DNA of 64,000 nt from Cyanophora paradoxa CCMP329. Its lineage: Eukaryota > Plantae > Glaucophyta. The notes beneath the pieces are model-generated. The model made no database searches and was not told the origin of the DNA. It worked only from the letters and a program-made list of their open reading frames with translations. Location: positions 62,001-126,000 of the forward strand of contig QPMI01000478.1 in NCBI GenBank assembly GCA_004431415.1. Reading direction: 5' to 3'. Below, in pieces: positions 34,579-54,662 of this stretch. The position numbers and the translations under genes are program-made. The stretch's first letter is position 1; each line of letters opens with the position of its first letter.

Positions 34579-35266
34579 CTAGCTGGTATCGATATCTAGC
34601 TAGCCTAGCGCTAGCCCAGTGCTTGATTAATTAACTGAAAGGTTGCGGAGGTTGCGGACGCGTCACAAATACGTCATAGTCGAATACGTCATAGTCCAAA
34701 ACCTGGACTCGGGACTCGGCCCGGGCCCTGCCGGTAAAAAAAAGAGACTTGAACAAAAACACCGTACCCCGGTATTTAACTTGAAATCATCATGACATCA
34801 TGTTCAAGTTGCTATGACATTAACTACATTCAAAAGCAATGAATGCAATAGTGTAGTCAAGCGATCGCGAAAGGATAGCGATAGGATCGGGATAGGATAG
34901 GTGACACGATAACGATAAGATAAGCTTGCAGATAACAGGGGTACAGTATTATTATTTGAAACTTGGCGAGAGTCTGGGCCCAGGTCCCAAGTCCAGGTTT
35001 TGGACTATGACGTATTCGACTATGACGTATTTGTGACGCGTCCGCAACCTCCGCAACCTTTCAATTGGACATTTGGACATTTGGACATTTGGACATTTGG
35101 ACATAACATGTACCCCCCTCCCCAGGGCCCGGGCCGAGTCCCGAGTCCAGGTTTTGGACTATGACGTATTCGACTATGACGTATTCGCGTCCGCGTCACT
35201 TCTCCCCCCATCCTACGTTCGCAGCCGCCGGGCACCTCCCACAATTTTCCGAGGTACCCAGCAAGC

Positions 35267-35560
35267 ATGGACTTTACTGACTGCGCAGGTATCAAGCAGG
35301 AGCCTGAGGACCTTCTCTCCGCCGCCGCCGCCGCCTCCGCCCCCAAGCAGCGCCGCCGCCGCGGGCCCAAGTCCCTCAGCTCCGAGCCCGAGATCCTGGC
35401 GACGCCGGTGCGCGAGCCAGAGACCGTGGACCTGACCGCAGAGGAGCCCGCGCGCGGCCCGCCCCGCCTCCTGATCCTGGCCGCGGCGGCCGCCGCGCTC
35501 TACTACGCCGCCCGGCGCCTGGGCCCGCAGCTCTCGGGCCTGGCCCGGAACCTTTTCTAA
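35267..35560 (+). CDS. Small protein with C-terminal hydrophobic helix
   Basis: Upstream AATTTTCCGA; LLILAAAAAALYY. Confidence 0.6.
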   Translation: MDFTDCAGIKQEPEDLLSAAAAASAPKQRRRRGPKSLSSEPEILATPVREPETVDLTAEEPARGPPRLLILAAAAAALYYAARRLGPQLSGLARNLF

Positions 35561-35570
35561 GTCTTGCCCA

Positions 35571-35912
35571 ATGGAGGCCCTGCTAGATCTCATGGCCTTT
35601 GCGCTGCCGATCTTCTTCCTGGTGGGCCTCAGCCGCATGGAGCGCGAGGCGCGCCAGCCCGAGCGCGTCGAGCGCGGCCTCACCCCCGAAGAGCAGCGCG
35701 GCCTCACCGAGTGGGACCTGGCGCTCATGGCCGGCCGCATGCTCAACGGCGATCGGCTCGAGGCGGGCCACCGCCTCAAGCTAGAGGACGGCGGCACGGC
35801 CGTCTGGACGGGCGAGGCCTGGACGCACGACTCGACGGGCGAGCCGATGAAGCTGCTCGCCTCCGGCAACAAGTACTGGCGCGGCGACTCGATGGAGTAC
35901 CGGCGGCCGTGA
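35571..35912 (+). CDS. Small protein with N-terminal hydrophobic helix
   Basis: Upstream TTTTCTAA; strong GC3 bias. Confidence 0.65.
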   Translation: MEALLDLMAFALPIFFLVGLSRMEREARQPERVERGLTPEEQRGLTEWDLALMAGRMLNGDRLEAGHRLKLEDGGTAVWTGEAWTHDSTGEPMKLLASGNKYWRGDSMEYRRP

Positions 35913-35938
35913 TTTTCTAGCCCTTCTACCAGCAAAGA

Positions 35939-36223
35939 ATGGCTGACCCCTCGCCCGACCCGGCCGCAGGCGTCGAGAGCGCGGGCAGCTCGGACGAGTA
36001 CTCGGAGCTCTCGGATCCGGATCCCGACGAGCCCTCCGACGCCTTCGCGACGGAGAACGAGCGCTCCCTCATGCGCATCTACGAGGCGCTGCGCGAAGCT
36101 ATCTACTGGGAGGACCCGCGCCTAGGGACCCTCATGAACTTCTCCAAGTTTGCCGAGTTCATGTTCGCTATGACCGTGCCCTTTACCCGAGTCGTGCTCT
36201 GGGATAGGAACAGGAACTGGTAG
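35939..36223 (+). CDS. Small viral hypothetical protein
   Basis: Upstream ATTTTCTAG. Confidence 0.6.
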   Translation: MADPSPDPAAGVESAGSSDEYSELSDPDPDEPSDAFATENERSLMRIYEALREAIYWEDPRLGTLMNFSKFAEFMFAMTVPFTRVVLWDRNRNW

Positions 36224-36656
36224 TATTGAGTACAGAGCCCTACGAGCTAGAGCTGCTATCGCCCGAGTCCAGGCGCGCCTTCTTGGCCTTGGAGCGGCGG
36301 AGGCGGGAGACGTACTGCAGGCGCAGGTTGCGCACGAGCAGCTCGCCGGCCGTGGTGCCCGGCAGCCCGGGAACCGCGTCCGTGGGCAGCAGCTGGCCCT
36401 CGCGTATAGCCTTGTACGTCTTGCGCTTGTTGAATGCAACCTTCTCCGTATCTTCCGTGCCGTCGTACTCGGACGTGGGAAGGAACTGCGAGGCGGTCTT
36501 GGGACTTCTAGAACCAGCGCGCGCTTGGCCTTCTTGATGGAGACTGCGTTCGCGCGCTCCAGCTTGACGCCGGGCTCCAGGGGGTAGCGGCGACTTCGTT
36601 CTCAGCGAAGGAGACACGGGGGAAGAGCCGCCGCGGGCATGGTTCGCTCGCTTTAC

Positions 36657-36983
36657 CTAGCGTTTAGAAAATAGCGCGCGAGCCTCGAGCACCAGGAGAC
36701 CCGCCACAACCGCTGCGGCGATGACCACGGCAACCTTGAGCCAGTGCCAGAAGCGCTCGGCCCCGTCCGTGAGCGCGCGGCCCGCCTTGCCCGGTGCGGT
36801 GAGTGCGGAGCCCAGCGCGCCCGCCGCAATGTCCGCCCACGCGCCTCCGTCGCCGCGCAGCACGTTCTCGCGGTTCTTCATCTCGACTGTGGCGCCGATC
36901 GCGGCGTTGAGCTCACCGAACTGCAGCCGCGGCGCGCCCTTGGGCCCAAAGGTCTTGGTGAGCAGCGCGTCGAGCCAGCTCAT
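36657..36983 (-). CDS. Small membrane protein
   Basis: C-terminal TM VAVVIAAAVVAGLLVL; upstream ATTTTCGAA. Confidence 0.65.
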   Translation of the reverse strand: MSWLDALLTKTFGPKGAPRLQFGELNAAIGATVEMKNRENVLRGDGGAWADIAAGALGSALTAPGKAGRALTDGAERFWHWLKVAVVIAAAVVAGLLVLEARALFSKR

Positions 36984-37012
36984 CTCTACTAGCTAGCGCT
37001 TCGAAAATCTAT

Positions 37013-37498
37013 CTAAATCGCGAAGCCGCGCAGGTACCAGACCATGAGGAGCGAGCCGCCGAGCGCCACGAGCAACGGCAGGTGCCCGTCGACCGCGCGC
37101 CGCGCCTCCCAGGCCCAGATCTCCTGGCGGCTCAGCTCGTTCGCGCCGTCGAAGTAAGCGCTGACGCCGTACTCGCGCGCGGGCGCAGGCTGCGCCCAGA
37201 TGCCGGCGCTCAGGCGCGGCGCCCCCTCTTTCTGCTGCTGCGAGGCCAGCGCCGCCGTCGCCGCGTGCGCCGCCTCGCGCTGGCCCGGGGCGATCGCTAC
37301 GAGGGGCAGGGGCCCGACGCCGCGGCCCTTGCCCGCAGCCTTAATCGACTTCAGCGCCGGCGGCGCCGGGTCCGCGCCCCTTAGCTTAGGCCCCTCGACC
37401 TTCGCCCCGCCCCCGCCCTTGGCAGCCTCGCCGATCTTGCTGCAGCGCGAGTCCGATTTGAACACCGTACACAACAGCTTCTCTACGGCGTTCGGCAT
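37013..37498 (-). CDS. Membrane-anchored viral protein
   Basis: C-terminal TM LPLLVALGGSLLMVWYL; upstream AAATTTTCTT. Confidence 0.65.
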   Translation of the reverse strand: MPNAVEKLLCTVFKSDSRCSKIGEAAKGGGGAKVEGPKLRGADPAPPALKSIKAAGKGRGVGPLPLVAIAPGQREAAHAATAALASQQQKEGAPRLSAGIWAQPAPAREYGVSAYFDGANELSRQEIWAWEARRAVDGHLPLLVALGGSLLMVWYLRGFAI

Positions 37499-37536
37499 GT
37501 TCAGACGTGTAACGTGAATGAAGAAAATTTAAAAGG

Positions 37537-37599
37537 GAGTATGGCTGCCACGGCAGCCTTGCTTACAGCAAGCTAAGCACAACATGTCTTGTCATGAAG
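37537..37599. repeat. Split direct repeat B, terminal copy (63 bp)
   Basis: Identical to 41357-41419. Confidence 0.95.
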
Positions 37600-38007
37600 T
37601 GAAGGTCTAGATTCGCGCTTGCCAAAGCCGCGAAGCTAAGATCATGACTCGCTCGCTCACAAGAAGGGCAAGCTGCAACTGCGCTCGAGGACATCAGCTA
37701 GCGCACGCTGCAGAGTGAGTCTTGCGGACGTAGAATGATTGAACATTAGTGATCAATTGTTGATCAATTATTCATCAAAAGATATCAATGGTTGGCACTA
37801 ACAATGGCTTAAAGATGACTGAAGGCATAGTAAACAATGGGCATTGCTAACACACATTGAAAGCGGCTAAGCAAAGCCGCTCGAGCGGCTAGGGAACAAG
37901 CCGCTCAGCAAGTTACACAGCTTGCCCTCGCTTGTGAGCGAGGGAGACAAGCGCCGACAGCACAGCAAAGGCGCACAACTGCGAAGCAAGACTCTAAGAC
38001 TAGACAA

Positions 38008-39008
38008 TCAACTACTGCGCCGAGTACGCGCGACTTGCTGCCGACATGACTGCAGCGAAGCTGACGGGCCAGCGTAACGAGCACCAGGCCTAGCCATGAG
38101 CGCAGCCAAGGGCGGGCGCTCAGCAGAATCGATATAGCGTCGGTAGACCGCTGACAACAAAGACCAGCGACCAACCGCTTGAACAAGCTCTTCAGGCACG
38201 CCCGCAGCAGCCAGAGCAGTAGCTCCACCGCGACGCAAGCCATGAGGTGTGATACCAGTGGCGTCCAAGCCCGCCGCGTCAAATGCGAACCGGAGAACAT
38301 AGGCCACGGTCTGAGCTGACAGAGAACGAGCTGCGTCCCGAAGCTGCCCAAAAAGAGGTGCGCCCGGATCCGCGAGCGCTAGAGTCCGCAAGTAGGTTCG
38401 AAACCAGAACACCGGACAGATGACCGACTCTGGGACGGCGCCCAAGACAACTTGCGCGCCTTGGCGACGACGATCGGTCTTGGAACCGGCAATGAAGAGC
38501 ACGACGCGATCCGCGCGGATGGACACATCTTGCCGCCGGAGTGCCACGATTTCGCCACGCCGCAACAGGCCAAAGAAACCGGTAAGCAACATCACAAGGG
38601 CGCGAAGGAGCTTGTTTGAGGGGAACGAGCGTAGGTACGAGCAATCGCCTCCAGGTGGACGGACGTGACCAATGCAGATTGCTTTGCTGGTTTTCCACAA
38701 AGTCGGGCGATTCCTTGCAATGTTTGCAGCACAAGGGGGTGAGCAAATGCAGTAGTAGGCAACATCCTCTGCCTTGTCTGATGTAGCAGAGCAGAGTGAC
38801 ACTGGTCAATTGCTGAGAGACCGTACTCTTCATCAGCAAGAGCCACCAGCAGTGTTGCGACGCCAGAAGCTGTTGGTGGCCAGGCTGGAATGCAGTGAAC
38901 CGCGCAATGGCCTTCATAGAGGACGACCCAGCGGGCGTAGAGGCTTTGGGTTCGCTCGCTCACAGAGTTTGTTCTGTAGAAAGTGACCCGGTTGAGCAGA
39001 TCAGCCAT
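38008..39008 (-). CDS. Tyrosine recombinase of the retrotransposon (one frameshift near 38620)
   Basis: GLLRRGE (R), GSKTD (K), HGLRRGGAT (HxxR), GRW, YRRY (Y); N-terminal part in ORF 38592-39008. Confidence 0.92.
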
Positions 39009-39164
39009 ACGAGCACCTGCATCACCAGAGTCAAGGGTATGTCAGACTACATTTCTTCTTCTTCTTTTTAAAGCCCCCCACTCAAGCTTTCTATCCCTGT
39101 TGCTGGACAAAGTAAGCTGAGCAGAGATGAGCAGGAGTTGAATTCTGCAGCAAGAGCCTTCAAT

Positions 39165-41129
39165 CTACTCCCACGACACATAAAGAGCAACAAGAATCCA
39201 GGAAGGCAACTGTGCCGAGCGAGGCCCGCGATAGCACACGTCATATGCTGGGCCAAGCACCATTGCAGGTGCACGCAAGGCAAGCTGCAACTGTGGCCAC
39301 CATGGAGCTGAGGGCCACTGAGGGACAATAAAAACTGCCGAGGCCCTACACTGGCGGACATGTGACACAAGGTGCAAGAGGACATTTGGGTCCGGAAAGA
39401 CGTAATTACGAGCACCACGCCAGGTTGCTGTAAAGCAATCATATCCTTCAGCATGTCGATCATTCAAATCAATGGAAAAGTATCGATTTAGGTGAGTGTT
39501 GGCTGATGAGGCCATACGATCAATATCAAAAGGTCCAAATGTCCGACTGACCATGGCAAAATACCCAGGTTTCAAAGAGTAGTCGGCGGGGTAAAAGTAG
39601 CGACTCAAAGCATCGGACCACTCATTGTCAACACCAGGAATGTGTTCTGCTTCAATGCTGATGCAATTGAGCAGAGCAATATCCCAAATTGCTGCTGCAA
39701 CTCGGCAAAGGTATTCATGTCTTCCGCCACCATTGTTGATGTAGGCCACAGTCACTGTGTTGTCCGAGCGAACTAAGATGTTCTGATTGCGCAATAAACC
39801 TTGATAGTGCTGCATAGCGCGAAGCACTGCCATTAACTCGCGCCACGACGAAATTTGCTGAGCTTCTTCTTGGTTCCACAGGCACTGGAATGGGGCAGGC
39901 TCAAGCTCCCAAGCCACAGGTTGAGCATCACCAATTCGGGTAGTGATCCAGGCTCCTGCACCAACATGGCTTGCATCCGTAGTCAACACAAAGAGCCTTT
40001 CAGGCCGAATAGGGCAGCGGCCATTGTATCGGTGGATGTTGGCCAGCCACCACTCAAGTTCCCGACGAGTCTCATTGGTGAGCTCCACTGGATGATTCCA
40101 ATGCCATTCTCTTGCCACGACATTGATGTATCGAAAGAGGGACCTGGTCTTGATGCGAGCTGGAGCCAAGCCCCGTGCCATGGACACAAGGGTGCCGGCG
40201 ACCTTGGCCATTTCACGTGCAGATGCTGATTTCTTTTTCTTCAGAAGCCCTTTGATCAAAGCAAGCAGACGACCAAGCTTGTCTTGGGGTACTTCAAACA
40301 ACATGCGGGCGGAGTCCACTATGAAGCCCAAGAAAGCCACCGACTGTGCTGGGGTGAGCTCAGATTTGCTGTTGACCACAAGCTTGAGGGCAGCAAATGT
40401 TTTGAGGACGAAATCCCGCAATTCACAGGCCTTCTCGTAGGTTGGAGCAGCAAACCACCAGTCGTCAACATAGTTCACCACGAAGATGCCAAAGCGGCGG
40501 AAGTAGTTGACCACTTGTCGCATGATCTTGACGAATGCAAACGGTGAGTGCTTGAGGCCGAAGGGCAAAACTGTGTACACATAGAATTTGCTGTCAAACT
40601 CAAAGCCCATGTTCCGCCAGTCTTGCGGTGAGACTGGCACGTGGTGGTATCCAGATTCAAGGTCAATAGTGAACATGTACCAGCCTTGGCGCAGCATGGC
40701 TGCAACATGCTCAAGAGTCTCATACTTGAAGGGGATGTCCGGAAGGCCTTTATTGGTAGGCCGGCCATCCCAGATGAGCCGCAACTTGGATCCAGTCTTC
40801 TTGGGCACCACGGACAGTGAGCAGACAATGTTCACTTGAGCTTCTTCAACTTCTCTGATCGCTCCCGTGCGCAAAAGCTTCTGAATTTCGGTTCTCACAA
40901 AGTCCTGATGGTCCACAGCCGCAGACTTGTGGTTGGCCCGGCGCTCTGCTGGCAGCCGCCTCGCTCCTGACAAAGGGAAACCACGCAAGATCCAGTTGAG
41001 CACGACATCATTGGCTCCAATCGCTCTCCACTGTTGGACTGCAGCTTGAATGCAGGATGCAACAAAGCCTCCTGCAAAGTGAGGTGAGGCCTTGCATTGG
41101 CAGACATGCCCAATTATCGCGGTGCCCAT
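39165..41129 (-). CDS. pol: Reverse transcriptase - RNase H - methyltransferase-like polyprotein
   Basis: KLRLIWD, IDLESGYHH, LPFGL, YVDD; RNase H TDAS, REL, SDN, HIPG..N..SDALSR; DIRS MT-like IDRMAS...VPQWPSAPWWP. Confidence 0.96.
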   Translation of the reverse strand: MGTAIIGHVCQCKASPHFAGGFVASCIQAAVQQWRAIGANDVVLNWILRGFPLSGARRLPAERRANHKSAAVDHQDFVRTEIQKLLRTGAIREVEEAQVNIVCSLSVVPKKTGSKLRLIWDGRPTNKGLPDIPFKYETLEHVAAMLRQGWYMFTIDLESGYHHVPVSPQDWRNMGFEFDSKFYVYTVLPFGLKHSPFAFVKIMRQVVNYFRRFGIFVVNYVDDWWFAAPTYEKACELRDFVLKTFAALKLVVNSKSELTPAQSVAFLGFIVDSARMLFEVPQDKLGRLLALIKGLLKKKKSASAREMAKVAGTLVSMARGLAPARIKTRSLFRYINVVAREWHWNHPVELTNETRRELEWWLANIHRYNGRCPIRPERLFVLTTDASHVGAGAWITTRIGDAQPVAWELEPAPFQCLWNQEEAQQISSWRELMAVLRAMQHYQGLLRNQNILVRSDNTVTVAYINNGGGRHEYLCRVAAAIWDIALLNCISIEAEHIPGVDNEWSDALSRYFYPADYSLKPGYFAMVSRTFGPFDIDRMASSANTHLNRYFSIDLNDRHAEGYDCFTATWRGARNYVFPDPNVLLHLVSHVRQCRASAVFIVPQWPSAPWWPQLQLALRAPAMVLGPAYDVCYRGPRSAQLPSWILVALYVSWE

Positions 41130-41197
41130 CTAGCACTGCTACAGCTGATGGTCCATGCAGCCGCTGGCTTGAAGATGGTGACACGCGAACGGGAAGA

Positions 41198-41419
41198 AGC
41201 TTAGAGGCCTTGGCTGCGAAGCAAGACTGAGGCTTGTACCCCAGGGGCGCACTTATAACTTGTAAGTGCGCCCCTTGTACATATGTGCGTAAGCAAGGCT
41301 GCCTTTATTTGGCAGCCATACACTGCCCTATGCTACGCTGACGCTCACATAGGTTCGAGTATGGCTGCCACGGCAGCCTTGCTTACAGCAAGCTAAGCAC
41401 AACATGTCTTGTCATGAAG
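41198..41419. repeat. Internal junction of repeats A and B, sharing a GA dinucleotide at 41357-41358
   Basis: Exact matches to both element termini. Confidence 0.95.
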
Positions 41420-42056
41420 AATATAAGAGTGAGCGTGTCAATGTGCTTGTTGGTTCAAGTCTTGAGCTCACATGCACACACAGTGCCACAATGCACCCAC
41501 AGTGCCACAACACATTTGCACAGGCATGGACTTTCTGGATGAATGCGCCAACCTGCGATATCAGCGGGAACAGTTGGCATCATGGAATCTTCGTACCCTT
41601 GTGTACTCCTCACCTGCAAAATGCACTAGGTTAATTTCAGAGCGCCCAGTATGCGATAGCGACACACGGGAAGGCCGGAGGGGCCAGGAGCTCGACAGCC
41701 AGCAGCACTCCTGACCTGTGCTGGAAACAGGTCAGTTGCCGGGAGTCAGCTGGGGCTCTGCCAGGTTGGAGTCATCCAGACGGCAATATATGCCACTAGC
41801 ATTGAAAAGAAAAGTAGACTACAATCACAGTCACACTTCACAGTGTTAACACATGCAAATGCACACAGGACCAATGCATAAAGCCACAGCACGCCGGCGC
41901 CACCACGGCTGGTAATGACTATGCCGCACCCGGCCACAATGCCGCACCCGGCCACATGTACACCATCACATGAAATGGAAGCATAATACATGTATTGCAT
42001 GTTTAGGGAAGCATACACGCACACTCTAGATCTTCTGAAGACTGCACTTGCATATG

Positions 42057-43236
42057 CTAGCAATACTTATGCTTGCAAGAACACACCGAAACACTAGTAT
42101 CTAGCGAAATGCGAAACGAAAACTGCGCGTCCACACAAGGGCGCGCACGTCTACTTGGGGGGTCGCGCCAGCCGGGGCGCGGCTCGTTCGGGCAATCCTT
42201 CACGACATGCCCGGGCTTGTTGCAGCGGAAACACATCCCGCTGTTGCGCTGCGACGGCGGGCGATCGCGGCCCTGGTGCTGGGGCCGCGGGTTGGCGTGC
42301 TGCACATACGGGCGCCCGCCGGCGGCCTCCGGGCCAGCAATGTTGAGCGCGTGCGCCAGCGCCGCAGCCGTGCCCCGATACTCCTCTGGCACACCTGACA
42401 GCCGCTCGGCAAGCTTGTCGCCGCCCTTGTCGCGAATGTCGATCCGCTTCCGGAGCTCGTCGAGGATTTTGAGGCTCTGCTTTACGTGATCGTAGCACGC
42501 AGTGCACGAAGAGCATCTCTTGAGCTGAAACTTAAGCTGCGATAGCTGCAGGGCAAGCTCACGAAGCCACGGGTTTTTGAGCTGCATAGCCTCATGGTTG
42601 TCTTTCTGCTGCTCGCCGAGCTGCTGCTGCTGCTGCTCTTGAAGCTTGATGACCGCGCTATCTATCCCACGCTGAAGTAGCTCAGCCCACGCTGGCGGAA
42701 GCGCACCCGCTGCCGGTTTGGTCGACGTTGGGGCAGTCGAGTTGCCAGCGGGTACAGCATAAGGGCCTTGAAGGTGACGGGTGAAGCCGGTTGACGGGCC
42801 AGCCGCGCCCGGATCCACTTGCGCCAAGTTCGGAAAGTTGCGCGCAGCCACTTGCTCTTCCTCGTCGTAGGCGCCACCGAACTGCTCACGCTGTGCCAGT
42901 CTAACGGCAACGTCGTCCTCAGGTTCATCTTCTGGGTCGGACTGCTGCTGGTCCGGATCCGGCGACACGGCTTTCTCCTTGCCTTTGCGAGATCGCGTCG
43001 GCGGAGGTGCAGGCTGCTCCTCCTCCGCACTGTCGTTGGCCGGAGCTTGAAGACGAGATGACGACCTCCGGCCTGGGGCGCGGGGTCGTCGCCGTCTTGG
43101 GTTTGGCCGACTTGCGCGCACCAGTGGCCGTTGACTTGCGTTTCTGCGCCGCCTCGGCACAGGCGACGAGCAGAATGATGGTCAAGACGACTACGAACAG
43201 AGGGGCCCACGATGGGCTCCTCCGCGAGCGAGCCAT
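42057..43236 (-). CDS. gag: Gag-like protein with CCHC zinc knuckle; probable start 43236 with a frameshift near 43040
   Basis: CFRCNKPGHVVKDC; ATG at 43236 lies 7 nt past repeat A. Confidence 0.8.
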
Positions 43237-43242
43237 GACCTC

Positions 43243-43403
43243 AGCTTAGAGGCCTTGGCTGCGAAGCAAGACTGAGGCTTGTACCCCAGGGGCGCACTTA
43301 TAACTTGTAAGTGCGCCCCTTGTACATATGTGCGTAAGCAAGGCTGCCTTTATTTGGCAGCCATACACTGCCCTATGCTACGCTGACGCTCACATAGGTT
43401 CGA
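43243..43403. repeat. Split direct repeat A, terminal copy (161 bp)
   Basis: Identical to 41198-41358; contains hairpin GGGGCGCACTTA...TAAGTGCGCCCC. Confidence 0.95.
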
Positions 43404-43467
43404 ACGTCGACGGACTTGAGCAACTTGGAAAAGGGAAAGGGGGGAATGAACGTTTGAAAAGGGAGAG

Positions 43468-43659
43468 TTAACGCCCGGCGGGGCGCATGCCGGCCGTCGC
43501 CTGCGAGTAGGAGCCGGGGGCGTAGAGGGTCTTGGCGGCGTAGCCGAAGCCCACGCCGATGACGGCCGAGGCCGTGGGCGTGCCGCCGAGGAGCCAGGTG
43601 AGGGTCGCGGCGAGGGCTCCTAGCGAGTAATGCGGGGGATAGCTGTCAGCGAGGGCCAT
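43468..43659 (-). CDS. Small hydrophobic viral protein
   Basis: ATG 43659 after TTTTTCTCA; two hydrophobic segments. Confidence 0.55.
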   Translation of the reverse strand: MALADSYPPHYSLGALAATLTWLLGGTPTASAVIGVGFGYAAKTLYAPGSYSQATAGMRPAGR

Positions 43660-43708
43660 CGCGGGACCGAATTGAGGGAGGGTTGAGAAAAAATACCGCC
43701 TCGAGGCC

Positions 43709-46700
43709 TCAGCGGTGCAGGTGCCGGAAGCGCGCGTTGTCCTCGGCCTCCTCGCGCTCCGCCTGCTCCTCCGCCGCGTCGATCTCCGCCCGCGAGGCCT
43801 CCAGCGTCGCCCGCCGCGCGTAGGACTGCGGGACGGCCACGCGCCGGTAGGGCTGGGCGAGGGTCTTCGCCATCTCCACGGTCTCCGCCTCGAACGCCCG
43901 CCAAGTCTCCGAGGCATCCGCGCCGGAGATCTGGCCGGCGCGGAAGCCCGCCTCCAGCTCGGCGCGGAAGGCGAGGGTGCGCTGCAGGCGCTGGGCCCAG
44001 AGGGCCTGGCGCCGCGCCTCCGCCTCGCGTGCCTGGCGCGCCGCCAGCGCCTGCCGCTCGGCCTCCTGCTGGGCCCCGAAGCCCTGGATCGCGGAGAGGA
44101 CGGCGCCGGGGCCGGGGACGGGGCTGGGGCCGTCGGCGCTCACGGAGGAGGCCGAGCTCCCGTAGCCGCTCGGGCCCGCGCCGCCGTTCGCCGGGGTACC
44201 CTGCCCTTGGATCAGGAGGGGGGCGAGGGGAGGGGGGGTACAGGGAAGGCGGGGGGTACGCGGGGCCGGACCTGGCGCGGCAGCATCTCGTCGATGCGCT
44301 GCTGGCCGGGGCGCTGCTGGGGGGCCGTGGCGGGGGGCTGGGGCGGGAGGAAGGCCGGCGCCGAGTTGCGGGTGCGCTTGCCCTTGCCCTTGGTGTTGGG
44401 CTTGACGAGGAAGGGCCCGACGTCGGCCACCGGGTCCTTGAACTGGGCGACGGGGATCGCGATCGCCTCCAGCGCCGGCTGGCTCTCGCCGAGGGAGAGC
44501 GGGGCCTTGGGGACGATGCCGCGGATGTAGGTCTGCCAGATGCCGCCGAGCTTGTAGGAGTAGAGGCGGCACCAGGGGCCGAAGCCGGCGAGGGTCTCGT
44601 CCAGCCTGCCGTTCTCGATGTCGGCGCCGACGGCGGCGGAGGTGTCCGGGCCCTCCGTGCGCGCGATGTACTCGACGATGCCCGCGACGCTCGTCATGTA
44701 GCCCTCCGTGTTCGGGGCGGCGCCGTAGGTGGTGGGGTCGACGGCGCAGTGGGTGATGATGAAGCGGGTGAGGGGGCAGGAGGCCGTCTCCTGCCAGAAG
44801 CCGAGGCGCTGCGCCCGCAACCACGCCGGCTCGAAGGCCTGGATGCAGGAGGCCTTGCCGTCGGAGAGCGCGTGGATGATCTTCCACGCGAAGGTGAAGG
44901 CCGCGACCATGAGCGCCGGCAGCTCGTTCTCGCGGATGTCGGAGTGGAGGTAGGTGCGCTTCTTGGCCGGCTTGTGGTCGAGGGGGATCAGGACGACGCG
45001 GGCGAAGAACTCGAGCATGCGGTTCTCGAGCTGCGCCGGGGCAAGTGAGAAAGGGCGCCGGGGAAGGGGAAGGGGGCAGGGGAACGGGCGCACCTGCGGG
45101 AAGCTGTTGCAGACGATGACAAGCACCTTGCGCGTCGCCTTGGTGCGCACATCGTCGCCGCGGACGTTCTTGAAGTTGCGGGAGTAGGCGTCGCCGGAGC
45201 GCATCTTGAGCTCCTCCTCCGAGCAGGCCTTAGGGTCGAGGCCCTCCGCCATCACCATGCAGATCGCCTCCTCGCCGCCGTGCTCCGAGAAGGCCGAGCC
45301 CTTGGAGGGGCGGTAGACGCAGACGCGGCCCGGCGGCAGGCACTCCGTCATGATCTGCGTCACCATCGACTTGCCTGCGCGCGCGGGGTCTCAGGAAAAG
45401 GAAGAGGGAAAGGCGGGGGCGGGGCGCACCCGTGCCCGACTGGCCCTTGATGATGCCGCAGTACTGCAGCATGGCGCCCTCGGACGGCGGCTCGATCTCC
45501 GCGCGCGGCTCCCGGTCGAAGACGGGCTTGTCGCAGAAGTTCCACGGCCCGACGAGGTTGAAGGCGTAGAGGACGGCCGCCGCGTAGCCGAACTCGTCGG
45601 CCGTCACGTAGCCGTTGTCCGCCAGGTGCTTGACGACGTTGGGCATGAAGGGGTGCAGCATGCCGTACACGGCGGGCCAGTCGCACGTCTCGGCCGCCTC
45701 CTCGATGCCCGCGGGCAGGCGCCCCTGGATGTAGCAGGTGTTCATGTAGCCCGCGTACCGCTCCCGTGCCTCCTCGTGCGACATGACGAGGGTGCAGGCG
45801 CTGCCCGTGCTGTCCTGCGGCGCCCGCACCACGAAATCTGCGCAAGGGGCGTCGGCGGGGGTACGGGGCGGGGCGCAGGGGTACGGGCGGCGCACGCGTG
45901 TCGCAGGCAAAGGCGAAGCCGGGGATGACGGGCATCTCGGGGCAGACGTCCTCGAGCTGGAGGGACTCCTCCACGAACGTGCGCGTCCGCCCCGAGAGCA
46001 CCTCCTTCGAGAAGGTGAACTCGAAGGAGCCGGGGCTGGACTCGTAGGTCTTGTGGAAGGTCATCGCCAGCAGCTGGATGACCTCCTTCATCGTCCCGCG
46101 CCCGGCGTGCCTGTTCGCGCTGACCTTGTCGTACACGAAGAGGTTCGGGAGCTCGACGTAGAAGGTGGGCGGGGAGTTCGGGCCGTAGGGTCTCTGGCGC
46201 ACGATCCGCTGCGCCGGCAAAAGGGGGTTAGCGGGGTTCGAACGCGGGGAGGGGGGCGCACCGGCCGAAGGCGGCTCGGACCCAGCGCCTTAAGCAGCTG
46301 GGCCACGGCCGCCTCCGGCCTCTAAAGGGGCGGGGCGCGCAGCTAAGGGGGGCGGGGCGCACGTTGTTCTTGACGAAGAGGCGGAGCGCATCCTGAATGG
46401 CCGCCTCCTTCTTGGACTTGTTGTCCTTGCTGTACGTTGTCACGTCATCGTACTTGGACATGTCGATCTCGGGCGCCTCGCGCGGCTGCGCCGCCAGCTC
46501 CGCCCGCGCCAGCTCCAGCCTGGTGGCGCGCGGCGGCTCGCCGTCGCTCTCCGACGCCTGGCCGTCGTCGTGGTCCGCCTCCGCCTCCGCCCGCTGATCG
46601 CGCAGCAGCTGCCGCTCGCGCTCGCGCCGCTGCTGGGCCCGGCGGGAGAGGCGGCCGGCGCGGGGGCCGGAGGGGGCGGAGGGGCATGTGGCCGAGGGAG

Positions 46701-48948
46701 GAGACGGGCGTGGCGACGGGCGTGCCCCGCGGCGGCGAGGGGATGGGGAGGGCGAGGGGGTACCCTGGACGGAGGGCGGCGGGCGCTGCGAGCGCTGCGA
46801 GCGCTGCGACGGCGGGACGGGGCTGAAGGCCGAGGGGTTGCCGCTCGGGCGCCAGGAGACGTCGGAGGCGGCGGGGCTGGCGGGGGGCACGGGGGCGGGC
46901 GGGCGGCGGGGGGAGACGAGGGGCGGCCTGGGGCCAGCGTCGCCGGGCTCGTCGTCCGAGAACTCCTCCACGGGCGGCGGCGGGGCGTACTCGAGGGAGG
47001 GGGAGGGCGGGAGGGGGTAGAACTCGTCGACGGGGGGCTCGGGCTCGAAGGTGTCCCCCGCCGCCGCCGCCGCCAGCTCGGCGTCGGCCTCGCCCTCGCG
47101 CTCGCGCTCGCGCTCCAGCTCCATCGCGTACTCCTCCGCCACCTCCAGCTCGCGCGCCGCCTTCGCGTCCGCCGCCGCCGCCAGCGCGGCCTCCTCCTCC
47201 ATCTCGCGCTCGGCCTCCAGCTCCTCCTCTGTGGGCAGGGTCATTCCTTTGCGGCGCCGGAACGCCCTAGGCTCAGAATTTTGGGGTGGGGAGGGCGCAC
47301 CGGCCGGCTCGGGGCCGGCCGCCTTGGGGGCCGCCGCCTCCATCTGCTCGCCGAGATCGCGCCGCGCCGCCGGGGCGGGCGCGTCCTCCTTCTCGAACTT
47401 GAGGTTGATGTAGGCGACCTTGCCCTTGCCCTTGCCCTTCGCCTGGGCCTGGGCCTGGGCCACGCGCATGGCGCGCGCGAGGCCCTCCGCCGTGATCTTG
47501 CTAACTCCGGCCCCGTCGCCGGAGGCGGAGGCCGTCGCCTCGCCGATCGCCGCCTGGAAGGCCGCGGCCATCGCCCGGCCGGCGCGCGGCAGGCTCCGCG
47601 CCCGCTCGAGCTCCTCCTCCGTGAAGTCCAGCGCCCGGGCCGCGGCGGCGGCCTCGGCGTCGCGCTCCTCCTCGGAATCCGAGCCGGAATCCGAGGACTC
47701 CGTGGCCGCGAGCATGGGGCGGGGGCGGGAGGCGGCGGCGGCGGCGGCGGCCGCCGCCTTGTCGAAGACGGGGACGAAGAAGGCGAGGGCGAGGGTGCGC
47801 CGCGGCACCACGTACTTGACGGCGCCGTGGATCATGGGGCGCCCGTACGAGTCCGGCATCGAGCACCGCCGGATGACCTGCGAGGGGGTTTAAATGGCAT
47901 CTAAATAGTCTAAATAGCATCTAAATAGCATCCAAATAGAAACGGCGCACCTGCACGCGGTCGCCGATGGTGACGCCGGGCACCTCGAACTCCGGAACCA
48001 GGTCGAAGGCGCAGATGCCCTGGCGCCCGTGGCGGTCCCGGCACGTCCGGCAGGCCGCCTCCAGCACGATGCGGATGGCGTAGGCGTCGGTGAGGACGCC
48101 GGTGTCCGGCCGCTCGCCCAGACCGCCGAGCTCTCGTGGCGCGTGATGAAGTCGCGGCTGTTCTTCTTGATGCAGCGCACCTCGATGCCCATGATGCCCT
48201 TCGCCAGCATCTGCGGGCCGGCGGGGGTCGGCGGGGAGGGGCGGTCGCGGCTGCACGGGCGGCTGGGGCGCACCTCGGGCTTGTAGGCCGGGTCCGAGCT
48301 GAGCACCAGCAGCCAGAGCAGGTGCCCGGCCGCCTCCGCCATGCGGTTGAAGTAGAACTCCTCCGGGCCCGTCAGCAGGCCAATCGTGCGCCACTCGCCC
48401 TTGGCGATGTGCCGGGGCACGGCGCCCATGAGCAGCCGCAGGCGCTGCGCCGCGAACAGCCGGCGGGCGTCGGCATCGCGCCCGGGCTTCGGCTTGCTCG
48501 GCGTGTCGAAGTTCTCCTCCGTCATGTTCAGCGCCGCGTGCATCGCCCGCACGTCCGCGTCCTGCGATGCGCCGCGGCGCCTCAGCCGCTGCGAGCGCAG
48601 AGAGAAAGAGGCAGCGAGCACCTCCGCGAGCCGCAGCCGCGACAGGACGGAGTCGATGGAGAACTGCACCGACGGGCCGGGGGCACCCTCGGCGTTCAAA
48701 GTCTGCGCCGCGGCCAGCTTGCGCTTGCGCTCGGCCAGCTCGGTCTTGCGCAGCACATCCTTGCTGTTCGGGCTGAACTGCATGCCGTCCTCCAGCGCCC
48801 GGGCCTGCGCCTCCTTTGCCTGGTCGCTGATGCCGGCCTCGAAAACCGTCCAATCGATGCCGAAGCTGTCGCCGATGCAGAGAACGTCGTACAGCGTGTT
48901 CCTCGCCAGCTTAGCCGGGATCTCCGGAGGGAGCGCGAGCCGAGACAT
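43709..48948 (-). CDS. Multi-exon gene for a large replication protein with a superfamily 3 (D5-like) helicase domain
   Basis: Splicing 45375-45429 restores Walker A GQSGTGKS; Walker B MVMAE, ELKMRSGD, motif C VIVCN, RVVLIP; about 9 short GT-AG introns; continuity of the 5' half is inferred. Confidence 0.75.
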
Positions 48949-49246
48949 GCTGCCGCCGCTGCTGCTGCTGCCGCCGCTGCTGCGAGTGCTGCGCGCGGGC
49001 TGCGAAGGCTTTGGCGCCAAGTTTCCAGCTGGTTTGAACGAGCGGCTTGCATTGCATCGCCAGAGAGAAAAAGCGAGAAACCGACGGGGGGTTGCAGCCT
49101 GGGGGGGTACGCGACGCGGACGGGGGGAGAAGCGCGCTTCAAGTCTGAGTCTTCGCGAATTAGGGGGGGGGGCAAGCCAGTGCGGGGTACGACCCGTGAA
49201 CGGAATCCGTTGGAGGTGTTGCACTTCACTGGCAGTAACAACCACC

Positions 49247-52022
49247 ATGCAGGCGGCGACCTTCCGCTCCTGCGCGAAGCAGCAGCAGCCCGGCGAGCAG
49301 GACAGCATAGCCCGCGATCTCGGCAGCCTATCGGCGGAGGAGGCGCTCAACGCGATGACCTACGATAGCGTGTTCAACTCGGCCGGCGTGCCGCGCTTCG
49401 AGCCGTTCGGCGGGCTGAAGAAGATCCAGAACACGGACGGCCACCCGAAGCACTTGAAGACCAAGGGCCAGTTCACGCCGGTTAATAAGTTCAACGAGGT
49501 TCGCGGTTTCGCCCGCACCGCTTCGGCCCCGGCTCACATGCCCCGGCTCGCGTGCCCCGCGCGCAGATCGTGCCTCACAGCATTCACGAGCTGCCGGAGT
49601 ATGTGAAGGCGAAGTACGGCTTCACGCACGGCGATGTGGCGCTGTTGCTGATGTCCGACAATGCGGCGGCGGGCTGCTTCAACAGCATCGCGCTCCATCG
49701 CGATTTCCATCCGCGCGCGATCTTCTCCGGCACTCCGGAGCAGAAGGAGTTCCTCGCGGACCTCAAATCCGGCAGCGGCGGCGCCCACGGGGTGAGGGCC
49801 CTTCCTGCGCTCGCGTGCCCGCGCTTGCTCACGCCCGGGCCGCCGCAGCTCTTGATCGCGCGGGATCAGTGCCTGGCGTCGGTGACGGAGAAGGAGAAGG
49901 CCAGCCCGTCCGGCCTCGGCGTTCGGTGCGATTACGTCATCGTCACCAAGCGCATCAACCCGACGTACGCCAAGAAGTACGACCTCAACTTCGTCTACGT
50001 GAAGGAGGGGCCGCCGGCCTCGCAGTACACCGTCACCGTCCAGGCCGGCATCTGCGCCGGCGAGACCACCAACGGCGCGTACCACGGCGTCGGCACGCTC
50101 CCGTCCGGCGGCTTCTTCGACGTCGTTGATCACATGTTCCTCTCCTGCGCCGATGACATTTACGTGCGCGAGAGCCCGCCCTTTCCCTTTCCCCTGCCCT
50201 GCGCGCGCTAAGGTCGCGTCCGCAGGTCGGAGAGAACCCGAGCGCGGAGAGCCCGCTGGGCTACGCGTACTGGCTGGTCAGCGTGCAGAAGGTGCTCTCC
50301 TGCGCGGCCCTTCGGAAGTACGCCAGCGTCTGCGACTCCGGCATGCGGCCCCAGCTCCAGCTTCTCGTGGATCAGGGCCGGAGCGACGAGACCCGCCAGC
50401 GCCACCGCGATCTCGCGCGGGCGGCCGTGCTGAAGCTGGAGGAGGTTCTGCGCGAGGGCCACCCAAACGGGCCGGCCCGCGCCCGTGAGATCCTCTCGGC
50501 GGCCATCTCCGTGATCGTCGGCGAGCTCTCGCACACGGTCCGCCGCCGCCCCGCTTAGCCCGCCTCTCCTCCCTGACCCGGGCCCTCGGAGCGCAGGAGG
50601 AGTCGGACGTTCTCACGGCGCGGGCGGACGAGTTCCAGCGCCAGGCGGAGAAGATCAAGTGCTGGTACGAGAAGGTGAAGAAGGCGGAGGAGACGGACCT
50701 GCGCGACTGGGGCAGCAAGAGCGGCGACGCCGAATTCGACCGCGACAAGCTCAAGCGCGTCTTCTACTGGATGCGCATCTGCGCCAAGCTGGAGGCGCTG
50801 ATGGACGAGTGGCACATCGAGGGCGTCCGTCTGGCGAAGGCGATGATCGCCATGGAGTGGGGCCACGGCCACCCGGCGCGCAAGGAGTGCAGCATGCTGG
50901 CCAAGGAGATCGGCCGCCGGGGCCGCTACATCAAGGAGGTGGCCTACGGCATCGAATGTGCGTCCGCCCGCCCTTGGCCTGCGCCCCGCCCTTGGCCTGC
51001 GCCCCGCGCTCTCCCCGCTCACCCCCTCTCCCGCAGTTACCATCCCGCTCGTCCAATTCTTCCAGCGCGAGTTTGTGCTGATCCAGGCCTCCATCATCAA
51101 GATCGGGTCGCTCTCCGCCAAGGAGGTGGACGAGGCAAGGGACGAGGGCCAGGCGGAGGCGGAGGCGCGCTGGGACGATGCGGCGTTCAGCGCCGTCTGG
51201 GGCGTCGGGGACAACGCGCTCTCGCCCCCCGCCCCGTTCGGCTTCAGCGGGCGGCCCGCGCTGGCGTTCGACGAGCACGGCCTCCCCGAGCTGGCGGACT
51301 GGGACGTCGAGGCGCCGGTGCCCGCGCCCTTCCCCCTTCCTCTCCTCCTCGGCCCCTCTCACCGCCTCCTCCAGCCCCCGGCGTCCTCGGCTCCGGCGTC
51401 CTTGGCTCCGGCGTCCTCGGCCCGGCCCTCTGCCCACCTACGGAGAGAGGTGTGCCCACCGCGCCGATTGCGCCCTCAACGGCTCCCACCTCCTGCCCGC
51501 CAAGAAGGCCCGCCTCGGCCTCTTCTCACCCCACCCTCTCAGCCCGGTGAGTGACTCTGAATCGGAGGGCTCGGAGGCCTATAGCACGCCCCGCGACCCC
51601 GACGCCCCGCCCCACAAGGCCGGCGCCTTCGGCTTCTGTAAGTGACGCCCCCACGCAGGCCCTGCCGACGCCGCCCGTCGCCAACCGCGAGCCCCTCGTC
51701 CAGGTGAGTGCCCGGGCTGCCGCGAGTGGCGGCTCGAGAACTTCTCGGCTCAGGTCCCGCCACGCAGCAGGCCCGCGCGATCCCGGCCTCGCCGCCCGTC
51801 GTCCCCGCCGCCGTCGCCGTGGAGGGCGGCGTCTTCGACATGGAGCTGGAGCCGGCACCCTCGCAGGCCTCGCTCGCCTCGGCGCGCTCGGCGGCCCTCG
51901 CCACGCAGGGCTCGGCCGCCCCGGGCTCGCCGCCGCCGTCGCAGGCCTCGGCCGTCGCCAACTCGCCGTACGATGACATGCCGCCGGTACTCAGCCCCGA
52001 GGACGACTTCCCGGGCCACTGA
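49247..52022 (+). CDS. Multi-exon viral gene of unknown function, divergent from the helicase gene; 3' exons uncertain
   Basis: GT-AG introns at ~49499-49566, 49792-49848, 50164-50225, 50538-50596, 50958-51036 join coding-like blocks. Confidence 0.65.
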
Positions 52023-52263
52023 ACGACACTGAGACGGTGAGCGCAGGCCCGCCCCGCCCTCCGGCCCCTCTCCGAGCAAATGGTCCACAACGCCATAGTG
52101 GACGCCATGTGGGATAACAGGGGCCGCCTCCCCCACCCCTTCCGCTACGTCTCTATGGCCCTCCGCGGCCTCGCCTTCCCGCCCCCCTGCACCGAGCAGC
52201 TCAACCAAATCCTGCGCGGTCTGATTCATTACAGACTCGCCTATCCGGCCTGGGCCTGAGCCG

Positions 52264-52920
52264 CTACATCAGCGCGTACGTCTTGAATTCCCTAAGCGCT
52301 AGCTGCTCCTCGCTGAGGTTCTCTGACTTCATTCGATCGCTGTAGGGCTCGGGCGGAGTCCCCGCCTTTACGTGCATCCAAAATAGCTGTAAGCACTTCC
52401 TCATGAGCTCGATGTACCTCTCGTCGCGCCTGACGTACCACGTTTGCACGCGCAGAGGAGTGAAGCAAAAAAGTTCGGCCCACTCGCGGCCCGTTATGTC
52501 CAGCAGGCCCTGGAGCTGGGGCATGTAATAAGTTGGGACCTTTTCGTACAGTTCGCCCTTGTACGGGCATTTCACCTCTAAAATTCTATCATTTCCTATA
52601 AGTCCGTCGGGACTACCGGCGAGGAACGGCATTTCTTTATGTTCGTGCAGTCCAGTATGTTTAATGTCAACGTTATCGTTCAGTGCCTTGTAGATAGAGA
52701 CCGCGAGGGGCTCATAGTCATGCCCGTAGGTTAGGGCAGGGTTGTCAAAGTTGTTTTCCTCCGCTATGCCGCTTAGCTCCGCCCAGAGGCGGGCCCTGGA
52801 TTTCCAGGGATTTATACCACACGCAGCCGCAAAATTAGATGCAGTTAGTTTTTCACGGCGCGCCGCGTGCCACGCCGCGCTCCCCTGTTGCAAAGTCTCG
52901 CAATCTGTATCGGTATGCAT
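52264..52920 (-). CDS. YqaJ/lambda-exonuclease family PD-(D/E)xK nuclease
   Basis: QGSAAWHAARREKLTAS, GHDYEP, AGSPDG, LEVKCP, YMPQLQ. Confidence 0.93.
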   Translation of the reverse strand: MHTDTDCETLQQGSAAWHAARREKLTASNFAAACGINPWKSRARLWAELSGIAEENNFDNPALTYGHDYEPLAVSIYKALNDNVDIKHTGLHEHKEMPFLAGSPDGLIGNDRILEVKCPYKGELYEKVPTYYMPQLQGLLDITGREWAELFCFTPLRVQTWYVRRDERYIELMRKCLQLFWMHVKAGTPPEPYSDRMKSENLSEEQLALREFKTYALM

Positions 52921-52970
52921 AGCTTAGCCTCGCAGTAGCGTTTAGAATTTCTTGATGTGTGCAATTGCAA

Positions 52971-53675
52971 ATGCCCGATGACGAAGATTCGGACCCGGTC
53001 GTGCATATGGACGAAGATTCGAGCCCCGAAGAGTTCCTGACTCGTGTAAGGGGCTTGGCACATTGGATCCGAGATAAATTCAAGGAGGGGATGCGAAATC
53101 AGATAGGAATGTCGTCCTTCCCGCTAAGGGGGCTAGCCCCTGTTGCATCCCAGGGGCTGCGGGATACCGTGAGGCTCGCCCCCCCATCCTATGATCGGAA
53201 CTGGGACTTCAGCAGTGTGCTTACGTCCCTGTACGTGGCGCTGATGTCGCCTAGAAGCCGCGTGGCGCGTCTGCCGAACGAGGCCAGGTTGAAGATCATG
53301 AACTTCTTACTCGCAGGTAGAGACGGGCGCGAAGGCGATGTGATCAATGGGCTTCGAAATGAGATACAGTGGTACATGCGTACAGGCGAAGGCGGTGTCC
53401 GGCAGTACGACGGCTCACGGTACACGGAGCTCGAGATTCCACGCGAGCTCGTACCCCGGAGCTGGCAAGAGCTTCCGCCCGCCCCACCCCCGCCCCCCGC
53501 CTACGTATCCCCCTTCGACTCGAGGCCCCCCGTCAACGAGCGCAAGCGGCTGCGCGACTGGCTGCAGGACGATCGAAACCGTCTGCCGGGCGAGCCAAAG
53601 GTCGGCACTATACCCCCAGAGGAGGAGGCGTACCCCGTTTTCGAGAATAATCGCTTGACGTGGAGATGGACGTGA
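52971..53675 (+). CDS. Viral hypothetical protein, paralog of 53714-54567
   Basis: EEFLTRV...WIRDKF and RLPNEARLKIMNFL shared with the next ORF. Confidence 0.7.
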   Translation: MPDDEDSDPVVHMDEDSSPEEFLTRVRGLAHWIRDKFKEGMRNQIGMSSFPLRGLAPVASQGLRDTVRLAPPSYDRNWDFSSVLTSLYVALMSPRSRVARLPNEARLKIMNFLLAGRDGREGDVINGLRNEIQWYMRTGEGGVRQYDGSRYTELEIPRELVPRSWQELPPAPPPPPAYVSPFDSRPPVNERKRLRDWLQDDRNRLPGEPKVGTIPPEEEAYPVFENNRLTWRWT

Positions 53676-53713
53676 TTGGGGGTACAGATAGATATTCTCA
53701 GTGAGCCGCAAGC

Positions 53714-54567
53714 ATGGCGCGAACACGCGAGTCCGACGTGCTGTACAACAACGGCGACCTGGACGGGGAGATTCGTCAGCGGAACGTGGACTTGGAGGAT
53801 GCGAACGCAGTGCTGGAGGGGAGGCGCACGTCCTCAGGGGGCGGCTCGCCGGCGGAGAACTTCATGGAGCGCGTGCTGTACCTGGTGCGCTGGATTAGAG
53901 ACGAATTCCACGACGAGCGGGAGCTCCCGGACAGGGAGATGATCAGGGCCGCGGGCTTGATGGGTATGACAGAGAACCCGAGATCGTACCTGAGGCGCGA
54001 ACGCAGGGATCTGAACGGCGATTGGGCGGACCTACAAGCGCTGTGGACGGCCTTTGCGAACCGCAAGAGCCAGATCCTTGCCCTGCCCGCGCAGGTACAG
54101 CAGCGTATCATTGATTTCGTAGCCCCTGGCGCGACGAGTCCCTCCAGCAGCCATTCATGCAACCACGCTTCCTCTCCGGGCTCAGGAGCGCGTTCTTCCA
54201 CTTGGCCGTGAGCAGCGACCGGTATTTCACACCGCAGAGGATCGTTCACGGCGAATTTGGCATACCCCCCGAGTGGCTGAATTTTGCCACCGTACCCCTT
54301 CCCCACCCCGCCTCGAAGGCCCCCCTCCCTACCCCGAGCAGCGTGACTCACTCAAGCGTCAGAGGGAGGTACGTGAATGGATGGACGACACCAGCCACTG
54401 GGTACAGGGCGAGGCCGAATTACGCAAGTTCGGAAGGTTCGGGCAGTAACAGCAGGGGGTACAGCATTCAGTTAGCGCGCGAGAGGGTTAGAGGCTGGGA
54501 GGCCTGGGGGGGGGGTACGTCAGACGTGTTAGTCCCCTGCCTCCCTGAATGCAATATAACAATGTAA
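53714..54567 (+). CDS. Viral hypothetical protein, paralog of 52971-53675 (frameshift near 54140)
   Basis: ENFMERV...WIRDEF and ALPAQVQQRIIDFV; continues in ORF 54157-54567. Confidence 0.65.
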
Positions 54568-54662
54568 CCTCCGTGACGCGTGACTCATCGAACCTCCGAG
54601 GGTTAACAATGCATTGACAGCGAAAGGGCAAGCTCGAGAGCTCGACCTTTGGCAAGAGCCCA

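Follow-up and report, generated by a model that had tools for sequence, protein, structure and literature searches.

Spliceosomal introns are known from several DNA viruses of protists. The closest case is the punuivirus, a giant endogenous viral element (GEVE) of Chlamydomonas reinhardtii in which host-like introns are enriched in pre-production genes and a viral promoter motif marks the production-phase genes (10.64898/2026.10.09.758095); the principle of intron-rich latency genes is already known from this 2026 preprint. In intron-rich mirusviruses, protist DNA viruses that lack a polymerase, such introns are taken to indicate transcription in the nucleus; their positions vary, and they are enriched in morphogenesis genes (PMC12768974). 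Integrated Polinton-like and giant-virus elements of dinoflagellates also contain introns (PMC12166617), and Yaravirus was searched for splice sites with none found (PMC11803573). Here we report introns in two genes of an endogenous, multicopy, gamadvirus-like mriyavirus element of the glaucophyte Cyanophora paradoxa CCMP329. The element spans approximately positions 3300..54600 (about 51 kb) of a 64,000-nucleotide stretch (contig QPMI01000478.1, positions 62,001 to 126,000, forward strand), hereafter termed the window, to which all coordinates refer.

The element shares with the Gamadviridae (Mriyaviricetes; PEV/NDDV group), as described by Yutin et al. (2024, 10.1101/2024.02.29.582850), a major capsid protein (MCP), A32 ATPase, VLTF3, RuvC, PD-(D/E)XK nuclease and SSB, a duplicated HUH gene, several group-specific open reading frames (ORFs), the lack of a detected DNA or RNA polymerase, and predicted nuclear replication. 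It differs from them in carrying a D5-like helicase in place of SF3_hel2 and no detected VLTF2, and from the marine Gamadviridae in being endogenous and multicopy in a glaucophyte, with an ATPase only 39-52% identical to theirs. Mriyaviricetes-related regions in a Glaucocystophyceae assembly were noted earlier, in a report that says it left introns out of consideration (10.1101/2025.04.19.649669). Spliceosomal introns in elements of this kind are likewise not described in the accessible text of PMC12220804 or 10.64898/2026.06.19.733378, and our literature search, which did not reach subscription journals, found no report of them in mriyaviruses.

Like the punuivirus, the element is endogenous and has a promoter-like distinction, with an A(A/T)TTT+C motif on its intronless genes. 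However, the punuivirus is a giant virus with a statistical enrichment (61 of 506 genes have introns, on average 2.5 per gene), whereas in the window 8-9 introns are found in each of 2 genes out of about 43, genes whose expression would be early. The dinoflagellate introns belong to repeated transposon families acquired mostly after integration, whereas those of the window do not belong to such families and lie within two genes only. According to one proposal, no living viruses are closer to the giant-virus ancestor than mriyaviruses, whose nuclear replication has so far been argued solely from genes that they lack; spliced transcripts add positive evidence for it. The near-binary split (2 intron-rich versus about 41 intronless genes) is found in a culturable alga with many copies of the element and a polymorphic intron. 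Together, the split and the polymorphism allow tests of two questions: what sorts viral introns by expression class, and by what route an individual intron arises or disappears.

Seventeen introns in a divergent gene pair

The introns lie in two genes that are transcribed away from a shared gap:

43709..48948, minus strand: D5-like superfamily 3 (SF3) helicase gene (left gene), ATG at 48948, stop at 43709, 10 exons, about 1,520 amino acids
48949..49246: intergenic region between the two start codons, 298 nucleotides; RNA contigs end at 49060-49072
49247..52022, plus strand: ORFan gene (right gene), ATG at 49247, stop at 52022, 9 exons, about 740 amino acids

Public sequencing runs of one organism contain up to 0.58 of the window's sequence words. 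Three of them, X1, X2 and X8, come from three studies (X2 and X8 from two) and were taken to be RNA, a guess supported by their intron joints and by a near-silent flank. These RNA-like runs were aligned to positions 36500-56400 only. In the left gene (48948 to 43709), exact CT..AC joints were found for 9 of 9 introns in X2 and at least 8 of 9 in X8 (from the best 15 of 17 joints), and in the right gene exact GT..AG joints were found for at least six of eight introns in X1, X2 and X8 (from the best 15 of 69). At least 15 of the 17 introns thus have exact RNA-like joints among the joints listed, the result of a junction check that the earlier note on this DNA had proposed. At the introns 51318-51374 and 51704-51767 the joint matches on the acceptor side alone, since the upstream sequence is different in the transcribed copies. 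Depth is near zero beyond 53100, and ORFs 52971 and 53714 are barely covered and were not used as evidence. Joints 51949/52234, 52261/52345 and 52386/52456 do not have GT-AG ends and were left out of the intron count.

All 17 introns are of the GT-AG type, and they range from 55 to 154 nucleotides (median 63), with three longer than 75 (79, 112 and 154). The earlier note had predicted about 14 or more introns of roughly 40-75 nucleotides; the number stands but the range was too narrow. Its GCAG acceptor is present in 15 of 17 introns, but GTGCGC donors, expected in most, occur in only 8. If one frame break per gene is allowed in this copy, 13 introns are in phase 0 and 4 in phase 1. Their GT-AG ends and their removal from the RNA-like runs identify them as major (U2) spliceosomal introns. 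They do not form a near-identical family of the introner type, as evident by the finding of only 12-35-nucleotide, low-complexity matches among them; the sequence common to the 17 consists of short C-rich and donor-side matches. The introns are as follows, each with an RNA-like joint unless other support is given:

48562..48621, minus: L1, 60 nucleotides, phase 0; joint 48560/48621 in X2 and X8
48211..48273, minus: L2, 63 nucleotides, phase 0
47878..47950, minus: L3, 73 nucleotides, phase 0, AT-rich with a short tandem repeat
47229..47300, minus: L4, 72 nucleotides, phase 1, in frame without a stop
46209..46362, minus: L5, 154 nucleotides, phase 0; joint 46208/46363 and splice-signal scan, one intron and not two
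45838..45895, minus: L6, 58 nucleotides, phase 1
45375..45429, minus: L7, 55 nucleotides, phase 1, inside the Walker A Gly codon; spliced in X2
45031..45093, minus: L8, 63 nucleotides, phase 0, just past motif C
44201..44271, minus: L9, 71 nucleotides, phase 0
49499..49566, plus: R1, 68 nucleotides; joints in X1, X2 and X8
49792..49848, plus: R2, 57 nucleotides
50164..50225, plus: R3, 62 nucleotides
50538..50596, plus: R4, 59 nucleotides
50958..51036, plus: R5, 79 nucleotides
51318..51374, plus: R6, 57 nucleotides, donor inferred; joint 51298/51374 from variant copies, and gene model P0037
51547..51658, plus: R7, 112 nucleotides
51704..51767, plus: R8, 64 nucleotides (67 to the next AG), donor inferred; joint 51688/51765 with 12 other letters between

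Inside intron L5 are another strong donor, at 46261, and a stretch of 60 nucleotides that stays in frame, possibly a skipped mini-exon or a nested intron. Only the long form (46209-46362) was seen in the RNA-like runs, and a model with a 33-nucleotide first intron and a 60-nucleotide mini-exon at 46262-46321 was ruled out by their joints.

The protein encoded by the left gene consists of an N-terminal domain without a match, a low-complexity linker, the helicase and a helical C-terminus. Walker A, Walker B (hhhhE rather than hhhhDE), motif C and an arginine finger occur in SF3 spacing and align to the D5_N+DUF5906 proteins P0058-P0060. A profile of the C-terminal 598 residues, searched against 1.84 billion representative sequences, gave 23 matches, of which 21 are strong (4 tied to EukProt, the sources of the other 17 not having been looked up). 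The two weakest (E 1.5e-5 and 2.5e-4) are D5_N+DUF5906 proteins, for which hhalign gives 96%. Sequence searches found no match for residues 1-335, where D5-like helicases would carry an AEP primase domain, and searches of Pfam, NCBIfam, PHROGs and PDB sequences named neither spliced gene. ESM Atlas returned nothing usable for the two proteins, and their AlphaFold models were unusable (mean predicted local distance difference test scores of 38 and 41). A 1-nucleotide gap breaks the helicase frame near 48116 and is probably an assembly error, because all four runs aligned there are without it. The ORFan protein has a helical middle and an acidic, proline-rich tail, and its frame is broken near 51425 in this copy.

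The earlier note had warned that standard ORF callers would miss this helicase. Pfam indeed gives only sub-threshold AAA_22 matches, but eukaryotic gene callers did find the gene: its exons match 16 gene models in EukProt, 15 of which span most of the query (61-94% identity) while one match is short, and a right-gene exon matches 22 models at 59-100% identity. Two related models bear Cyanophora paradoxa accessions, in agreement with this host. The multicopy nature of the element rests on these models. Left and right models are numbered one or two apart on seven contigs. Models P0012 and P0015 reach beyond the helicase to include the small gene at 43659, and P0012 runs further, into homologs of ORFs 37498 and 36983, in a copy that has no retrotransposon next to the helicase gene. 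Therefore, the retrotransposon found there in the window is a later insertion, and the spliced pair belongs to the element. In proteins P0009 and P0013 the N-terminal half is near-identical to the window gene and the helicase half only about 70% identical, a mosaic that suggests recombination between two virus types.

Intron L7 (45429-45375) lies in phase 1 inside the Gly codon that precedes the Walker A Lys, exactly as the earlier note had placed it. It is spliced in X2, and runs X8, X15 and X16 show an allele without it. X15 and X16, from one sample, behave as DNA: X15 covers the right-gene introns and the flank, and neither run shows any other left-gene intron joint. A 620-nucleotide contig from X16 retains L8 and is without L7. 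The L7-less allele has a synonymous Thr codon, ACA, which is used for 2 of the 59 Thr codons of the helicase gene; this is compatible with a two-base-shifted deletion, with exact loss accompanied by a CpG change, or with a gain in which an exonic AG was co-opted. The sequence-divergent transcribed copies in X2 and X8 share 8 of 9 left-gene junctions, and therefore the introns predate amplification of the element.

Introns across the element and in marine relatives

The earlier note's claim that structural genes are without introns agrees with ORF continuity and with a splice-signal scan. Judged from their reading frames, the other 41 ORFs are continuous or, as in the MCP gene, broken by direct frame switches without intervening sequence. 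All 17 introns fall in 6,790 exonic nucleotides, compared with 31,049 nucleotides of other ORFs (P ~2e-13 under uniform placement), a value that presumes the other ORFs to be intron-free on the strength of their continuity and the scan. The scan was trained on the 17 introns, and its strongest C-rich scores fall in the two genes, with scores elsewhere weaker or antisense except for a candidate acceptor directly before the ATG of ORF 4115. There, a polypyrimidine tract and GCGCAG (4060-4117) stand immediately 5′ of the start codon of ORF 4115-5179, at the left end of the element; this ORF is possibly a third spliced gene, with a candidate intron in its 5′ untranslated region (UTR).

The intronless genes with named products are these:

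18690-20306, minus: HUH_long, adjacent to HUH
20330-21172, minus: HUH Rep
21393..24769: VLTF3 (plus), A32 ATPase (minus) and RuvC/A22 (plus), found by Pfam
28576..30018, plus: MCP gene, broken by frameshifts without intervening sequence, not by introns
52264..52920, minus: YqaJ/PD-(D/E)XK nuclease, right neighbor of the ORFan

The A(A/T)TTT+C motif lies within 60 nucleotides upstream of 25 of the 41 intronless ORFs (background 8%) and of neither intron-bearing gene. The motif precedes HUH, HUH_long, SSB and RuvC, all of them intronless, and therefore the split is not one of replication versus structure; YqaJ lacks introns too.

A similar confinement is found in marine relatives. The ATPase of the element retrieves 29 loci from IMG/VR at 39-52% identity, and these loci share 59% identity or more with one another; five weak loci, L037-L041 (E 1e-4 to 7e-4), were dropped, and L033 and L035, duplicates of L031 and L032, were not counted. 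The SF3_hel2 gene of marine gamadvirus contigs (IMG/VR and metagenome) bears GT..AG inserts. At a 3′ site, a phase-0 GT..CAG insert of 72-123 nucleotides is present in all four distinct contigs, with a GC content of 0.40-0.46 versus 0.58-0.65 in the flanks. At a 5′ site, two of the three contigs that cover it carry a phase-1 insert (112 and 62 nucleotides), and a third insert of 128 nucleotides occurs in one of four contigs. Four of these seven inserts begin with GTGCG, and skipping each one brings back an open frame and homology. One intron candidate is in frame without a stop. By eye, 20 of 32 database helicase proteins look like products of read-through, with an acidic tract, then Val, then either a stop or sequence without relation to the helicase, and in one protein an in-frame insertion sits at the 5′ site.

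No intron-sized frame breaks were found in the ATPase (29 loci), VLTF3 (28), SSB (25), YqaJ (24), RuvC (15-16), VLTF2 (11) or HUH_long (5), nor in the MCP of 16 loci, where one near-zero-gap shift occurs. Visual inspection showed motifs like A(A/T)TTT+C upstream of most of the marine gamadvirus genes viewed. Degradation was the published reading of frameshifts in the 5′ part of SF3_hel2 (PMC11253617), in a paper whose main text contains neither ‘intron’ nor ‘splic’. These frameshifts, which would correspond to the 5′ insert site described here, are probably introns, and helicases called degraded are thus probably intact once spliced. What appears to be new is this confinement of putative GT-AG introns to a helicase that is not homologous to that of the window. 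Directly upstream of the helicase gene in L031 (4230-4720) lies a tandem repeat region, possibly an origin.

Origin and meaning of the spliced pair

The intron pattern likely reflects the use of host splicing just for genes that are switched on first. We consider it reasonably probable that the spliced pair is the first-wave (immediate-early or latency) module of a gamadvirus-like virus predicted to replicate in the nucleus. Given that no viral RNA polymerase was detected, host polymerase II would read the pair first from the 298-nucleotide gap, likely a bidirectional promoter, and the host spliceosome would process the transcripts like those of host genes. Introns would be tolerated or favored in the pair as a consequence of this host-type expression. 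The helicase would unwind DNA for HUH-initiated rolling-circle replication by host DNA polymerase, a mode proposed in 10.1101/2024.02.29.582850. The ORFan might most plausibly be a regulator that opens the second wave, a weak assignment based on its position and its acidic, proline-rich tail. Viral factors such as VLTF3 would take part in driving the remaining genes, those with the A(A/T)TTT+C motif, which may lack introns because splicing is either out of reach or expensive at that stage. Gain and loss of introns would take place during viral activity, an idea suggested by the polymorphism of the Walker A intron. The earlier note had proposed a nuclear virus with spliced early and unspliced late genes; splicing of the pair, the lack of a detected polymerase and the intronless structural genes agree with this proposal, but HUH, SSB, RuvC and YqaJ are intronless as well.

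Several observations weigh against this explanation. We infer the early versus late order of the two gene classes, and the A(A/T)TTT+C motif was picked after viewing these same upstream sequences; moreover, 16 of the 41 intronless ORFs are without it, and its absence from two intron-bearing genes is a small sample. Sequence searches found no match for the whole ORFan protein, and no non-integrated homolog of either spliced gene was found. The pair has a GC content of 65-74% versus 50-71% in most of the element. Neither SF3_hel2 (hhalign 0.2% against the L030 helicase) nor VLTF2 (an 11-sequence profile, labelled from gene position and Cys motifs, with nothing at E 0.05 in the window) was found. 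Because the window helicase is unrelated to SF3_hel2, the parallel with the marine contigs is functional and not by descent. The marine inserts are known from sequence alone, those contigs could be integrated copies, and the frame-break test misses in-frame introns and includes some overlapping loci.

More tentatively, and with slightly less than even confidence, we propose a lineage-wide rule: only first-wave genes, above all the replicative helicase, would be spliced by the host, and this rule would have outlived replacement of the helicase itself. The published helicase frameshifts would then be introns, and the glaucophyte copies a latent, transcribed virus whose Walker A intron is being gained or lost. 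If true, this would give a first direct indication that Mriyaviricetes are transcribed in the nucleus. The earlier note had suggested comparing intron positions in related viruses; the marine helicase inserts provide such a comparison, but between non-homologous helicases, since no relative of the window helicase was found in the 29 loci, in other viral contigs or in record G001.

An unlikely alternative is that an intronless virus integrated, that only the pair stayed transcribed, and that a host intron-generating process supplied introns before or during amplification. Every copy observed is endogenous, L7 is polymorphic, dinoflagellate viral elements acquire introners mostly after integration (PMC12166617), and introns of endogenous giant viruses have been interpreted as decay. 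However, junctions shared between the divergent X2 and X8 copies place the introns before amplification, no repeated introner family is present, and the marine inserts, confined to helicases with no intron-sized frame break in conserved structural genes, argue against simple post-integration decay. The earlier note considered such gain unlikely because it would not be so confined, and the equally confined marine helicase inserts favor that view. For these 17 introns, gain at the proviral stage is possible because no non-integrated homolog of the two genes was found.

We consider it improbable that the pair is a captured cassette, taken with its introns from another mobile element or from host genes in place of the original helicase region. 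Helicases are known to be exchanged among mriyaviruses (10.1101/2024.02.29.582850), the helicase is unrelated to that of gamadviruses, the right gene is an ORFan, and the pair has a higher GC content, with a GC content at third codon positions of 0.9-1.0 in most exons. Against capture, no other helicase was detected in the element (Pfam, 63 frames), and the pair is linked to viral neighbors in at least two other copies. No ordinary cellular homolog is present among the profile matches examined. Capture would be compatible with a first-wave module if the virus now depends on the pair.

It is very improbable that structural genes carry short in-frame or UTR introns visible only by RNA, since alignments of ATPase and VLTF3 with marine homologs contain no insertion of intron size, the strongest C-rich splice signals fall in the two genes and the MCP breaks are direct frame switches, despite the candidate acceptor before ATG 4115, the one in-frame marine intron and the limited span of the RNA-like alignments.

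Other features of the element

Without a 5.9-kb retrotransposon the element measures about 45 kb, compared with a range of 35-45 kb for Mriyaviricetes. Its right end is based on a fall in depth near 54600 in run X15, whose summed depth is about 40 on the flank and 500-6400 over most of the element, values that do not give a copy number. No terminal repeats or integrase were found by repeat, Pfam and profile scans. Pfam, applied to 63 frames, detected VLTF3 (PF04947, E 9e-25), the A32 ATPase, A22/RuvC (PF04848) and YqaJ (PF09588, PD-(D/E)XK), the last two above cut-off, as well as DUF5767; it detected no DNA or RNA polymerase, although divergent enzymes could escape. The HUH protein matches the gamadvirus HUH profile (E 9e-16), with HUH and YxxK motifs visible, and its duplication as HUH and HUH_long is a feature of Gamadviridae. 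The N-terminus of the MCP matches the gamadvirus MCP profile at the sequence level (E 1.3e-6). A T7-like SSB is 31% identical to marine homologs, with matches in 22 of 29 loci. Common to the window and the 29 loci are MCP, RuvC, SSB, YqaJ, VLTF3, HUH, HUH_long and several unnamed ORFs. We assign the element to a gamadvirus-like sister lineage and not to Gamadviridae, because neither SF3_hel2 nor VLTF2 was detected and the ATPase is only 39-52% identical to those of the loci.

The retrotransposon stands beside the helicase gene:

37537..43403, minus: tyrosine-recombinase retrotransposon with split direct repeats

It encodes a tyrosine recombinase, a reverse transcriptase-RNase H and a CCHC gag. 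The repeats pair 37537-37599 with 41357-41419 and 41198-41358 with 43243-43403, an arrangement that we take to be the Ngaro/PAT layout. RNA-like runs join 43331 to 37537 and 41286 to 37537.

Frameshifts break the MCP gene (28576-30018) and a long structural-type gene (11041-13889), either by assembly error or by decay. In the left arm, HNH and HNH-AP2 endonucleases, an fn3-repeat protein and a C1q-domain protein are encoded at 5837-6202, 7718-9649, 9653-10288 and 10490-11035; the last of these is possibly a fiber or minor capsid protein. Tandem arrays of the 7-nucleotide unit TGGGACT, direct and inverted, lie near the left end (3185-3254, 5253-5327 and 5753-5816), and related repeats in both orientations recur at 33754-35212. 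A CCTG-G-run-TACG motif is present in the intergenic gap of the spliced pair (49099-49112) and near the right end of the element (54503-54520), and GGGGTAC recurs at several places in the window; these are possible origin or end signals. The host flank at 59702-60647 contains a long inverted repeat with 103-nucleotide arms (95%) and further matching segments, resembling a miniature inverted-repeat transposable element.

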